Shown piece after piece: positions 37,083-38,646 of a DNA stretch of 64,000 nt. The translations under genes were made by a program, and so were the position numbers. The stretch comes from a phage. The DNA lies in assembly GCA_029220445.1 (NCBI GenBank), contig GCA_029220445.1_3666.1; one strand, given 5' to 3'. A model generated the notes under the pieces. The model saw only the letters and a program-made list of their open reading frames with translations, searched no databases and was not told where the DNA came from. Position 1 is the first letter of the stretch. Each line of letters opens with the position of its first letter.

Positions 37083-37421
37083 ATGGCGGATACAACTAAA
37101 AAGCGTCGCCGTAGAGGCAGACCTCTGAAAGAGGAGTCCAACGCCATTCAGCTAGAGAAGAACATCCTTGATATGAAGGAATCTTTTATAGCGATGGTTC
37201 CAGAAGCTCACAAAGTTTTAAGAGAGCTGATGTTGGACCCGAAAACCAAACAAAATATTCGTCAAAGCATTGCAGAGTATGTTCTTGATAAGGCAGACCG
37301 AATGCAGGAAGAATATGATGAGATGTTTGGTGAAGAGGAAGAGGTGGTAGTGGAAGAGGCTGAAAAACCAGCACCTTTTATGCCATTTACTACAGAAATA
37401 CAGCCTGTTAGCAATAGCTAA
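37083..37421 (+). CDS. hypothetical protein with AT-hook-like basic N-terminus
   Basis: MADTTKKRRRRGRPLKEE contains an RGRP AT-hook core; acidic C-terminal half. Confidence 0.5.
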   Translation: MADTTKKRRRRGRPLKEESNAIQLEKNILDMKESFIAMVPEAHKVLRELMLDPKTKQNIRQSIAEYVLDKADRMQEEYDEMFGEEEEVVVEEAEKPAPFMPFTTEIQPVSNS

Positions 37422-37430
37422 AATATTTTC

Positions 37431-37459
37431 TTGACAAACTTTGCTTAACAGTGTAATAT
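37431..37459 (+). promoter_or_regulatory. sigma70-type promoter TTGACA-N17-TAATAT for the tRNA cluster
   Basis: consensus -35 at 37431-37436, -10 at 37454-37459, about 60 bp upstream of the first tRNA. Confidence 0.55.
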
Positions 37460-37517
37460 TGTAAACATGGTCTCCCACCTTTTCTGGCGGCTAAGGTGTA
37501 AAAGAAAGCCACCCAGT

Positions 37518-37592
37518 GCCCTGTTAGCTTAGTGGATAAAGCAGCGGCCTTCTAAGCCGTTGACACTGGTTCGAGTCCAGTACGGGGTGCCA
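37518..37592 (+). tRNA. tRNA-Arg (anticodon TCT)
   Basis: manual fold: 7-bp acceptor, D arm GCTT/AAGC, anticodon loop CTTCTAA with U33, T loop TTCGAGT, encoded CCA. Confidence 0.8.
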
Positions 37593-37596
37593 AATT

Positions 37597-37683
37597 GGGG
37601 AGTTATCCCGTAGAGGTAGCGGTGTAGACTGTAAATCTATTGTCATTGCGACTCGGGTGGTTCGACTCCACCACTCCCCACCA
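37597..37683 (+). tRNA. tRNA-Tyr (anticodon GTA), class II with long variable arm
   Basis: perfect 7-bp acceptor GGGGAGT/ACTCCCC, anticodon loop CTGTAAA, T loop TTCGACT, encoded CCA. Confidence 0.8.
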
Positions 37684-37797
37684 AATTTATATTTTTAGAT
37701 GCATAAATAATACAGATAATGGCATTGATATTTATCGTCGTTTATACTAGTCACTAACTGCTCGAAAATCAGTGTCATTATCAGTATAATTTATAAA

Positions 37798-37888
37798 GGA
37801 GGGTAGGGAGCAATGGTGCTCAAGCGGTCTTGAAAACCGTCCCGTTGAGGATGACTCGATGATGGTTCGATTCCATTACTCTCCGCCA
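37798..37888 (+). tRNA. tRNA-Ser (anticodon TGA), class II with long variable arm
   Basis: acceptor GGAGGGT/ACTCTCC, anticodon loop CTTGAAA, 20-nt variable arm, T loop TTCGATT, encoded CCA. Confidence 0.75.
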
Positions 37889-37986
37889 CATTGTTGACCT
37901 TGTAATTAAGCGAAAGCCGGAAGCAGAACCGGATTATCAAATGTTACAGTCGTCATCGCCGACTAGCAACATGGTCAACATACTGA

Positions 37987-38083
37987 GCTAGGTAAGCCCT
38001 TTGGCAAGGGCGAGGATTTTTAATCCTGAAAATAGACGAGGTAGTCGTTGAATACATAGGTGGTTCGATTCCATCACCTAGCA
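37987..38083 (+). tRNA. tRNA-like element with aberrant anticodon arm (possible Lys-UUU variant or pseudo-tRNA)
   Basis: perfect 7-bp acceptor GCTAGGT/ACCTAGC, canonical D arm and T arm, but the anticodon-arm position is a 5-bp stem with a 5-nt loop TTTTA (or 4-bp stem with loop TTTTTAA) and about 30 extra nt precede the T arm; no encoded CCA. Confidence 0.35.
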
Positions 38084-38090
38084 CCTTTTT

Positions 38091-38166
38091 GCTGATGTAG
38101 CACAATCGGTAGTGCAATTGATTTGTAATCAATAGGTTGTAGGTTCAAGTCCTGCCATCAGCACCA
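38091..38166 (+). tRNA. tRNA-Thr (anticodon TGT)
   Basis: perfect acceptor GCTGATG/CATCAGC, anticodon loop TTTGTAA, T loop TTCAAGT, encoded CCA. Confidence 0.8.
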
Positions 38167-38167
38167 A

Positions 38168-38242
38168 GGCCCTGTAGCTGGAAGGTTCAAGCAAGCGACT
38201 CATAATCGCCAGACGGTGGTTCAATTCCACCCAGGGCCACCA
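38168..38242 (+). tRNA. tRNA with CAT anticodon (Met or lysidine-modified Ile)
   Basis: perfect acceptor GGCCCTG/CAGGGCC, anticodon loop CTCATAA, T loop TTCAATT, encoded CCA. Confidence 0.8.
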
Positions 38243-38253
38243 AATAGTAAATA

Positions 38254-38330
38254 CTCCGCGTAGCTCAGCTTGGTAGAGCGCCTGATTTGGGATCAGGAGG
38301 TCGAGTGTTCGAATCACTCCGTGGAGACCA
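38254..38330 (+). tRNA. tRNA-Pro (anticodon TGG)
   Basis: acceptor CTCCGCG/CGTGGAG, anticodon loop TTTGGGA with G37, T loop TTCGAAT, encoded CCA. Confidence 0.8.
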
Positions 38331-38376
38331 CTTTCAGTTATACTTTAAACATATACAAACAAAAGGAACCTTTAAA

Positions 38377-38646
38377 ATGTATACACTTAAAATTGTAGAG
38401 CGTGTAAATCCAACTCATACCGTAGATTTTCGTGACGATTTCAATCCTCTGGCTGTAAATCTTCGAGAGTCATATCATGAACTCAGCTGCGATGCAGTGG
38501 TGGTCTTTTTTGAAGACAACTCTGAAGGGGCGGTAGCTTGTGTTGTTGATAGTGAGCAGAAGTTTTATATTTACAGAGATGTAGATGCATACTTGATGAA
38601 TGAAAATGCAGTTACTGTTAGAATCATCCACCGAGTGCCTCGATAA
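38377..38646 (+). CDS. hypothetical protein
   Basis: ATG at 38377 (MYTLKIVERV...) after AAGGAA; the track's 38287 start lies inside tRNA-Pro. Confidence 0.45.
   Translation: MYTLKIVERVNPTHTVDFRDDFNPLAVNLRESYHELSCDAVVVFFEDNSEGAVACVVDSEQKFYIYRDVDAYLMNENAVTVRIIHRVPR

Follow-up and report, generated by a model that had tools for sequence, protein, structure and literature searches.

The closest described counterparts, in kind, of the RNA considered here are the T4 RNAs rnaC and rnaD (species 1 and 2), stable RNAs encoded in or beside a phage tRNA cluster, which we take to be tRNA-like and processed by RNase P. Several other RNAs share part of the same design. Class II tRNAs (Ser, Leu, Tyr and Sec) fold into a five-helix cloverleaf with a stem-loop between the anticodon and T arms, and both transfer-messenger RNA (tmRNA) and the viral 3′ tRNA-like structures are tRNA mimics in which the acceptor and T domains are functional and a normal anticodon arm is missing. 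The phage tRNAs that resist nucleases (T5 tRNA-Lys for PARIS, tRNA-Tyr for the retron-Eco7 PtuAB, tRNA-Thr for P2 OLD, and mycobacteriophage tRNAs with anticodon-loop changes) are cluster genes with anticodon stem-loops unlike those of the host. We examined an element with likenesses to each of these, which lies at positions 37987-38083 on the plus strand of a 64,000-nt phage sequence (contig GCA_029220445.1_3666.1; "the window" is this whole stretch), inside a cluster of six tRNA genes. Comparison with its relatives indicates that the element is almost certainly a conserved and functional RNA of ~97-100 nt, tRNA-like but non-canonical and kept under selection, and that it is of a kind, a phage-encoded tRNA-like RNA present in one copy per genome, that forms a previously undescribed family.

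Relatives of the element were gathered from phage records, IMG/VR and metagenomes with BLAST and pattern scans, and were compared in alignments A1, A2 and A4, which hold 20 to 31 distinct sequences and in which the counts are of sequences, not of independent events. Around the element, a 1-kb region shares 100% identity with Escherichia phage FFH2 and 99.9% with rV5 (both Vequintavirus, Vequintavirinae), and on sequence identity the window is assigned to the rV5-like Vequintavirus. The parts of the window copy are as follows:

37987-37993, plus strand: 5′ strand of the acceptor stem, GCUAGGU, pairing with 38076-38082 through 7/7 Watson-Crick pairs
37994-37995, plus strand: positions 8-9, AA, with A8 invariant in alignments A1, A2 and A4 where tRNAs carry U8
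37996-38011, plus strand: D arm, GCCC / TTTGGCAA / GGGC, with a 4-bp stem
within 37996-38011, plus strand: D loop, UUUGGCAA, corresponding to U14 U15 U16 G18 G19, in which G19 covaries with T-loop C56
38013-38027, plus strand: hairpin 1, 15 nt in the place of the anticodon arm, AGGAU-UUUUA-AUCCU (5 bp and 5 nt) or AGGA-UUUUUAA-UCCU (4 bp and 7 nt)
38028-38034, plus strand: 5′ junction motif, GAAAAUA, of which GAAAA is invariant in the family (A1 and A2 columns)
38035-38049, plus strand: hairpin 2, GACGA-GGUAG-UCGU+U, a module variable in sequence and length
38050-38058, plus strand: 3′ junction motif, GAAUACAUA, abutting the T stem, with AUAC invariant and AUACAUA nearly so (A1 and A2)
38059-38075, plus strand: T arm, GGUGG-UUCGAUU-CCAUC, with one G.U pair
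38076-38082, plus strand: 3′ strand of the acceptor stem, ACCUAGC, the partner of 37987-37993
38083-38085, plus strand: discriminator A73 and CC, the final A of CCA being unencoded and UUUUU coming next

A reading made earlier from the window's letters alone (the sequence-only reading) had described this architecture, and its structural claims were confirmed: the fully paired 7-bp acceptor stem (GCTAGGT/ACCTAGC), the D arm GCCC/GGGC with GG in its loop and the T arm GGTGG-TTCGATT-CCATC are all present, both readings of the AGGAT-TTTTA-ATCCT hairpin, including the alternative 4-bp stem with loop UUUUUAA, fit the sequence, and the roughly 30 extra nucleotides with a second hairpin amount to a 31-nt variable region (38028-38058) that contains GACGA-GGTAG-TCGT. 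Independent tools agree with it as well: ARAGORN calls a tRNA-??? to which no amino acid is assigned, and de novo folding returns the described five-helix cloverleaf (-34.2 kcal/mol, z = -4.1; 0/200 shuffles as good). The minimum-energy fold closes the U-A pairs of hairpin 1, leaving a loop of 3-5 nt. With the Rfam tRNA model (RF00005), the window copy is matched end to end at 35.5 bits (gathering score 29), through an alignment that has to open an insertion of 26 nt in the variable region and a deletion within the anticodon stem; for the five neighbouring tRNAs that this model matches (of the Arg, Thr, Met and Pro types), the scores are 60-77 bits. No other family in Rfam 15 matches the window copy or the divergent members. 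The suggestion that the extra nucleotides are an intron did not hold up, as the 31 nt lie in the variable region, form a conserved module in all relatives and match no Rfam intron. A group I intron in the anticodon loop was considered and rejected, because the insert is in the variable region and its removal still leaves a 15-nt arm.

More than 30 distinct variants of the family were recovered, from five genera of the Vequintavirinae, from phi92-like phages and from uncultured phages:

Vequintavirus: the rV5 lineage, including the window copy
Avunavirus: Av-05
Seunavirus: PVP-SE1, SSE121, 4MG, GAP31, KE22, EspYZU15, FENT2 and NINP13076
Mydovirus: KB57, Mydo, KNP2, KPP-1, Ro1, K54 and others
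Henunavirus: Erwinia Hena1 and pEp_SNUABM_01
Justusliebigvirus (phi92-like group): outra and ~30 others
Unclassified contigs of ~150 kb: several

The rV5 query had BLAST matches in 167 phage records, the Seunavirus, Mydovirus and Henunavirus queries in 74-81 and the phi92-like query in 34. R1, a covariance model derived from the alignment, gives exactly one hit per phage locus and scores members at 87-115 bits, compared with 28 bits for the best ordinary tRNA; the window copy reaches 103.8 bits (E about 2e-22) and carries each of the features by which the family is defined, namely the A8/U14 frame, a hairpin 1 of 15-16 nt, GAAAA-hairpin-AUACAUA, the T arm and a location in a tRNA cluster. Most members, including the Seunavirus/Mydovirus and phi92-like copies, are missed by the Rfam tRNA model at E <= 0.1. 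All copies lie inside a tRNA cluster directly after another tRNA, often just 2 nt from its CCA, and this preceding tRNA is a Thr or Ile-like gene in the Vequintavirinae and a Leu(UAA) gene in the phi92-like phages and the deeper contigs. A host or prophage origin was rejected, the family pattern having 0 matches in 185,579 bacterial and archaeal species (one genome each). Descent from a single tRNA isotype was also rejected: 90 co-resident phage tRNAs were compared with the frame and no one isotype came out ahead, the scores being ~11 alike for Tyr, Gln, Cys and Gly and 19-49 for members of the family.

The pairing of the tRNA frame is maintained across this diversity. Among 20 sequences, 98.9% of the cells are paired, compared with 82.3 +/- 1.3% in shuffles (0/500 reach the observed value) and 33-44% with slid partners, and 12/22 pairs have changed on both sides. 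Across A1, A2 and A4, the corresponding ranges are 91-99% observed, 74-82% in shuffles (again 0/500) and 33-48% with slid partners, with two-sided changes at 12-18 pairs (17-18 in the larger sets). In 30-31 sequences, the acceptor stem is 100% paired with two-sided changes at 5/7 pairs, pair 3:70 occurring among others as C-G, A-U and U-A; C2-G71 is invariant and G1-C72 is found in 29/31 members. The D stem is 98% paired with covariation at 3/4 pairs, and the T stem is 99-100% paired with two-sided changes at 3/5 pairs on the model-guided alignment. The elbow pair 19:56 is G-C in 19 of 30 sequences, U-A in the other 11 and unpaired in none. In these patterns, selection is seen to preserve the whole "top half" of a tRNA: the 7-bp acceptor stem, the T arm, the D arm and the pair joining the D and T loops at the elbow.

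Hairpins 1 and 2 are also maintained. The stem of hairpin 1 covaries (A-U, G-C or G.U at its first pair; A-U, U-A or C-G at its fourth). On a single MAFFT or Infernal alignment, only 66-68% of hairpin-2 cells pair; its two main types are offset by 1 nt and cannot be aligned, so that hairpin 2 was judged by folding each lineage against shuffles. By this measure, 18/23 distinct versions are more stable than 93-100% of their shuffles, a hairpin is found there in nearly every lineage, and in Av-05 it carries compensatory changes (GACGG/CCGU).

The variety of pair types and the compensatory changes rule out neutral decay and, with it, the proposal in the sequence-only reading of a degenerate tRNA, with which stems paired at 98-100%, 17-18 pairs changed on both sides and a covarying 19:56 pair do not agree. 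A decaying tRNA pseudogene or a recombination scar would account for the aberrant anticodon arm, for the CCA missing in the window and for the inconsistent annotation of the gene, and cluster tRNA genes do recombine, as seen in the tRNA-Tyr/element chimeras of phage V18 and O157 typing phage 4. We nevertheless regard this explanation as very improbable, given compensatory substitutions in all four frame helices and in the tertiary pair among phages of six host genera, invariant motifs that are not those of a tRNA, strictly one copy per genome, and a degree of pairing, across very different stem sequences, that is incompatible with neutral decay. The chance that the segment instead encodes a small hypothetical protein is negligible. 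In the records of KE22, SSE121, Mydo, FENT2, NINP13076 and others, short coding sequences (CDSs) have been placed over the homologous segment, and a 59-aa open reading frame (ORF) overlaps the element on the minus strand of the window; however, the annotated ORFs vary in frame, strand and extent between records, the substitutions are paired in the manner of RNA helices and are not codon-periodic, and hairpin-2 lengths of 14, 22 and 23 nt differ by amounts that are not multiples of three.

As to the chimeras, in V18 (locus L074, ~655-745) a deletion has fused tRNA-Tyr, at its anticodon arm, with the 3′ strand of hairpin 2, so that the 5′ half of tRNA-Tyr is followed by that strand, the T arm and the acceptor 3′ strand of the element, and tRNA-Ser and most of the element are gone. 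In typing phage 4 (locus L075, ~650-730), a tRNA-Tyr-like gene ends in the T arm and acceptor 3′ strand of the element, and these parts come after an unrelated insertion of ~140 nt. Either recombination between cluster tRNA genes or assembly artefacts could have produced both.

The family departs from tRNAs in three ways. First, the arm in the anticodon position has 15 nt (Vequintavirus, Avunavirus, Henunavirus, phi92-like and deep contigs) or 16 nt (Seunavirus/Mydovirus) in all 31 members and never 17. If a 5-bp stem is drawn, the loop has 5 or 6 nt (UUUUA, UUAUA, AUCAA, CAUCCA and others), and if a 7-nt loop is drawn, the stem has 4 bp, so that either drawing leaves the arm one base pair short; position 31:39 is U-A, C-G or C.A across members. 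The window tRNAs, when aligned to the Rfam tRNA model, have 17-nt anticodon arms. Second, A8 and U14 (the first position of the D loop) are invariant, whereas tRNAs have U8 and A14; U15, U16, A21 and G26 are also invariant in the family. Third, the variable region, which has 4-5 nt in class I tRNAs, measures 31 nt in the window copy and, in most relatives, 39-41 nt, and is built in a constant order: the invariant GAAAA, 2-4 nt, a hairpin, 0-3 nt, and AUACAUA abutting the T stem (in the phi92-like copies, AAUACGAAA). The 3′ end varies as well, with A73-CC-U in the window, UCCA in most genera, UACA in Av-05 and UCCC or UUCA in the phi92-like phages.

Hairpin 2 occurs in two main types. Type A, in rV5, Av-05 and part of the Seunavirus/Mydovirus group, has a free sequence of 14-23 nt. 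Type B, in Mydo, Seuna and Henuna phages and one deep contig, has a covarying stem of 3-4 bp (GCC/GGC, GUC/GAC, AGCG/CGCU) and a conserved loop of 12-14 nt, GAAYUAACAGUA; further forms are lineage-specific. That these types cut across taxonomy suggests module exchange. Kissing between the loops of hairpins 1 and 2 was considered for several type-A members (UCCA/UGGA, with one apparent compensation, GCCA/UGGC, in 4MG) and was set aside as unproven, the complementarity being absent or buried in stems in other members and absent in type B.

These junction motifs and hairpins bear on another explanation, in which the tRNA frame serves only for processing and stability, giving maturation (RNase P and CCA) and protection from decay, and the junction motifs and hairpins 1 and 2 are the active part, binding a specific protein or RNA with no relation to tRNA biology; the RNA would then be a counterpart in nature of the "tRNA scaffold" used in the laboratory. 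Consistent with this, the most conserved unpaired nucleotides are GAAAA, AUACAUA and, in many lineages, the 12-nt hairpin-2 loop GAAYUAACAGUA, the hairpin-2 types are exchangeable across genera irrespective of taxonomy, like a swapped module, and the CCA tail is not conserved in three lineages. However, the 64-kb window holds no antisense site for the invariant 3′ motif (same-strand matches number 2, against 4.7 expected), and neither Pfam nor PHROGs identifies an adjacent partner gene, the neighbours being unknown small proteins, a phosphoesterase, spanins, terminase and portal. A scaffold would also leave unexplained the invariance of C2-G71, the near-invariance of G1-C72 and the patterns of discriminator and loop described below, and in rV5 hairpin 2 is minimal (5 bp), with a loop that varies within the genus (GGUAG or AGCAG). 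We therefore consider a pure scaffold unlikely.

Compared with the known systems, the combination of these features is distinctive at each point. The linkers of T4 rnaC (an A-rich linker AAAAAUAU, a 7-bp hairpin, an AAUAA linker and a tRNA-type T arm) loosely recall GAAAA-hairpin-AUACAUA-T arm, but rnaC has no D arm with GG, replaces the D and anticodon arms by a long helix and measures 139 nt. Model R1 finds no homology to rnaC or rnaD (T4 70908-71171, locus L044), and in the T4 locus only tRNA-Leu and tRNA-Thr score, at ~24 bits. As an observation on layout, the 3′ half of rnaC (L044 1409-1547, minus strand) reads UAAAAAUAU-UGAGUAG-CGUCAA-CUACUUA-AUAA-CCGGG-UUCGAAU-CCCGG and echoes the phi92-like GAAAAAUAU-GUUAGAC-CGCUUU-GUCUAAC-UAAAUAC... 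in having an A-rich linker followed by a hairpin (7 bp, loop of 6 nt) and then by a short AU linker ahead of the T arm.

Class II tRNAs, with tRNA-Cys, are the best-scoring ordinary tRNAs under R1 (<=28 bits). Their variable arm is separated from the core by 0-2 unpaired nt, whereas that of the element is flanked by invariant single strands of 7-9 nt and 9-10 nt, and they have a 17-nt anticodon arm, whereas the element has 15-16 nt and A8/U14. tRNA-Sec (RF01852) has an 8/5 acceptor/T arrangement and a 6-bp D stem, compared with 7/5 and 4 bp in the element, the window copy of which carries no UCA; members with a UCA loop score 39-42 bits with the Rfam tRNA-Sec model (gathering score 47), and tRNA-Ser and tRNA-Tyr score similarly. 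YrlA, a Y RNA-like RNA, ends in a Ro-binding stem, and its tRNA-like module is closed where the acceptor of a tRNA is open. It is a non-coding mimic of the acceptor/T-arm/D-arm module found in enterobacteria and some phages (PMC4201824). The Rfam YrlA model (RF02553) has no hit over the element, its only hit (25 bits; gathering score 69) spanning tRNA-Met and tRNA-Pro. Unlike tmRNA, the element has no tag reading frame and its hairpin-2 length varies out of frame (ARAGORN calls no tmRNA), and unlike the viral 3′ structures it is a free-standing small RNA gene and not an element of an RNA-virus 3′ untranslated region (UTR). The nuclease-resistant phage tRNAs, to which the rV5 copy comes close in having a Lys loop and A73 on a different stem, are otherwise canonical, decoding tRNAs with 17-nt arms (PMC11464382, PMC12445682, PMC10264068), in contrast to the short arm, rebuilt core and unconserved loop of the element.

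We then asked what an odd loop says about decoding. As a control, 125/137 distinct ARAGORN tRNAs of the same loci have U33 in a 7-nt loop, and the 12/137 that lack one or the other feature are, for the most part, tRNA-Ile(GAU) genes with C33, in several lineages. An odd loop alone does not, therefore, prove that an RNA does not decode, which weakens the argument from a missing U33; phage tRNAs are reported to alter anticodon loops to escape nucleases (PMC10264068), which fits this. The length of the arm, A8/U14 and the rebuilt core are stronger arguments against decoding than the missing U33. The tRNA-Ile(GAU) genes with C33, which recur in several Vequintavirinae and phi92-like clusters, have loops CCGAUAA or UCGAUAA (L045 9354-9429, L048 8829-8904, L019 7645-7719, L066 4576-4651), and a tRNA-Cys with C33 and a tRNA-Pro with G33 also occur; the change to C33 may be an evasion of anticodon nucleases. 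In Seunavirus/Mydovirus loci, the tRNA just upstream of the element (L006 719-794, L007 718-794, L009 651-726, L010/L011/L012 651-725) has a normal cloverleaf and an encoded CCA, with loops lacking U33 (ACGAUUC, AAGAUUC, the 8-nt ACAGAUCC and the 6-nt ACGAUA); it is annotated as Ile, Ser or nothing, and ARAGORN gives "???" for the 6-nt and 8-nt loops.

The anticodon is not conserved among the orthologues, whose loops include UUAUA, CAUCCA, CAGCCA, CCUCCA, CCGCCA, CUUCCA, CCUCAA and YAUCAAA. The loop is kept within groups and changes between them: YAUCAAA is common to the Erwinia, phi92-like and deep-contig copies despite different stems, closely related Mydovirus/Seunavirus copies differ only at loop positions 2-3 and in hairpin 2, and the differences among FENT2, K54 and L053 are confined to alignment columns 33-34. 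Loop positions 3-5 and the discriminator read UUU and A73 in Vequintavirus, UAU and U73 or C73 in Avunavirus, UCC or GCC and U73 in Seunavirus/Mydovirus, and UCA and U73 elsewhere. Bacterial Lys identity consists of A73 with U34 U35 U36, and Gly identity of U73, G1-C72, C2-G71, G3-C70, C35 and C36 (PMC9976931 Table 1). The Lys set is complete in the window copy if hairpin 1 takes the form of 4 bp and 7 nt and is absent if the U-A closing pair forms; the Seunavirus/Mydovirus copies carry all of the Gly set except G3-C70. In all 5,426 complete E. coli genomes, the tRNA-Lys arm reads A31-CUUUUAA-U39, compared with A-UUUUUAA-U in the window. From these alignments, the lineage-specific pairs of loop and discriminator suggest a mimic tuned to different host tRNA identities, although the matches to identity sets rest on few evolutionary events and are suggestive.

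The same data invite the explanation that the rV5-lineage element is a chargeable, decoding and nuclease-proof tRNA-Lys(UUU) with an altered anticodon stem and an unusually big variable arm, a substitute for host tRNA-Lys, the target of PrrC and PARIS, as is T5 tRNA-Lys. In the reading with 4 bp and 7 nt, U32 U33 U34 U35 U36 A37 A38 and A31-U39 reproduce 8/9 positions in the tRNA-Lys arm from E. coli, A73, which is confined to the rV5 lineage, completes the bacterial Lys identity set (PMC9976931), and ARAGORN finds no other tRNA-Lys in the window. The depositors of the BASEL collection annotate a tRNA-Lys, the stem AGGA/UCCU differs from that of the host, in which AriB makes its cut between positions 40 and 41, and, as noted above, a minority of the real tRNAs of these phages also have non-canonical loops. 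On the other hand, the 15-nt arm is one base pair below every functional anticodon arm and its preferred fold leaves a loop of 3-5 nt, no class I or II tRNA resembles it in having A8/U14 and a 31-nt variable region flanked by long single strands, the element is the sole gene of the cluster without an encoded CCA, and with the Rfam tRNA model it reaches about half the score of the neighbouring tRNAs matched there. With UAU and U73 in the sister genus and non-Lys loops of 5-6 nt in other orthologues, Lys decoding is not the conserved function. The earlier proposal of a divergent tRNA-Lys is not favoured, given the 15-nt arm, the loops of the orthologues and the CCA; for the rV5 lineage, we find a decoding tRNA-Lys distinctly unlikely.

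As a whole, the evidence is best explained by a non-decoding tRNA mimic that is matured by the tRNA-processing machinery, a reading which we put forward tentatively and with somewhat less than even confidence. Of the four readings first proposed for the element, a tRNA-derived regulatory RNA is nearest to this. The RNA and the tRNAs would share a transcript that starts at the cluster promoter; RNase P would release the 5′ end of the RNA, RNase P cleavage at the downstream tRNA-Thr and 3′ trimming would release its 3′ end, the host CCA-adding enzyme would complete the CCA, and the product would fold into an L shape. We infer from the arm, which is one base pair too short, that ordinary codon decoding on the ribosome would not take place, and the element probably does not decode. 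Such a tRNA mimic could occupy or titrate a factor that reads the acceptor/T-arm elbow, the discriminator and loop nucleotides, the most plausible targets being a defence nuclease or toxin of the host that attacks tRNAs, or an aminoacyl-tRNA synthetase; this specific decoy mechanism is doubtful. Several precedents are relevant. The PARIS effector AriB cuts tRNA-Lys at positions 40/41 and is neutralised by T5 tRNA-Lys (PMC11464382), phage tRNA-Tyr, tRNA-Lys and tRNA-Thr rescue cells from PtuAB, AriB and OLD (PMC12445682), bacterial Schlafens cleave tRNA (PMC13056530), and TacT recognises U73 and G71 (PMC9976931). None of these four papers mentions the element.

One extension, which we consider improbable, is that the family is a re-tunable mimic of tRNA identity, a fixed chassis that is incompetent on the ribosome and whose loop and discriminator are re-set in each lineage to copy a host tRNA. 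It would copy Lys in rV5-like phages and a Gly-type identity in the Salmonella, Klebsiella and Cronobacter phages, and would capture or jam whichever weapon is relevant in the host, be it an anticodon-arm nuclease (PARIS, PrrC) or an acceptor-end toxin (TacT), with the conserved A-rich junction as its trap or resistance element.

Several points weigh against the non-decoding mimic and its proposed mode of action. Two isolates, V18 and typing phage 4, have no intact copy, so that, if their assemblies are right, an intact copy is not needed on laboratory hosts and the element is dispensable in culture; such dispensability is typical of accessory or counter-defence genes. The decoy mechanism is reached entirely by inference, and a stoichiometric decoy needs high abundance. 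The Vequintavirus, Avunavirus and phi92-like lineages do not encode the whole CCA, which weakens models that require aminoacylation. Simple mimicry also leaves unexplained the invariant junction and the type-B loop GAAYUAACAGUA, which point to an additional specific ligand. As regards identity, Av-05 (UAU and U73) fits no identity set and the Gly set lacks G3-C70. Outside the rV5 lineage, the hairpin-1 loop mimics no E. coli tRNA loop, and CAUCCA and YAUCAAA lack U33 and have no exact match among host loops.

The context of the element in the window is that of a tRNA operon. On the plus strand, ARAGORN calls, in order, tRNA-Arg(UCU), Tyr(GUA), Ser(UGA), the tRNA-??? at 37987-38085, Thr(UGU), Met(CAU) and Pro(UGG), so that the element lies between tRNA-Ser and tRNA-Thr. 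tRNA-Thr starts at 38091, 7 nt past the discriminator of the element, and the full CCA is encoded by 6/6 genuine tRNAs of the window. A consensus scan places one promoter upstream of the cluster:

37431-37459, plus strand: sigma-70-like promoter, TTGACA-17-TAATAT

The rV5 record annotates the same site as P(tRNA), and it is probably, on this prediction, the region in which transcription of the operon with the element starts. Between tRNA-Ser and the element, a 98-nt spacer (37889-37986) folds better than its shuffles (-28.9 kcal/mol, z = -2.85), with a long-range stem UUGUUGACC...GGUCAACA around two small hairpins, and may be a processing spacer or another small RNA.

Further observations concern the clusters themselves. 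The CAU-anticodon tRNA at 38168-38242 of the window is annotated as tRNA-Met in rV5, Murica and JLBYU08 and as tRNA-Ile (AUA, lysidine type) in the BASEL records. Around 18 unannotated "Campylobacter phage" records (MG065644-MG065682) are 99-100% identical to the window over the tRNA cluster (37400-38400), and these are probably mislabelled or derived from contaminating coliphage. Just downstream of the element in three deep contigs, R1 gives hits of 14-15 bits (L058 6397-6517, L071 1592-1712, L057 2541-2639). A CUA-anticodon tRNA (ARAGORN "Pyl", amber-suppressor-like) at L058 7862-7934 and L071 2791-2865 shares its clusters with UCA-loop family members, in uncultured phages of ~150 kb. Two unannotated cluster gaps (L010 1087-1165 and L042 469-547) score 34.9 and 38.6 bits with the Rfam tRNA model, and neither ARAGORN nor the depositors call anything there.

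The family has so far been annotated in many ways. The element is unannotated in the rV5 record and goes unmentioned in the genome paper on rV5, in which six tRNAs are reported (PMC3606486). Near-identical genomes label it "tRNA-OTHER, Asp|Gly" (Murica), "tRNA-Lys, AAA" (the BASEL phages), "tRNA-Stop(tta)" (JLBYU08) or "tRNA-???(atcc)" (slur16), and in other genera it is mostly unannotated, overlaid by small hypothetical CDSs or called "tRNA-sup(tca)". A search of the full-text literature found no paper describing the element or the family. In a screen of 245 coliphage tRNAs against AriB, Govande et al. 2025 obtained tRNA-Lys genes.

The family is present in several hundred sequenced phages of therapeutic type (rV5-like, PVP-SE1-like, Klebsiella Mydovirus and phi92-like), and its gene should not be counted as a "tRNA-Lys", a "suppressor tRNA" or small hypothetical proteins in genome reports for phage therapy; model R1 separates the family cleanly from tRNAs and is a tool for annotators. 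tRNAs are a main battlefield between bacteria and phages, on which PARIS, the retron PtuAB, OLD, Schlafen and PrrC destroy them and phage tRNAs replace them. Should the element prove a mimic or decoy, an RNA-based counter-defence would join replacement tRNAs and protein inhibitors, the only kinds known to the field, and a re-tunable identity mimic, if true, would be the first RNA decoy in the conflict between phage and host over tRNAs. If it decodes instead, a bacterial virus would encode a tRNA whose core is unprecedented and whose anticodon arm is shortened.

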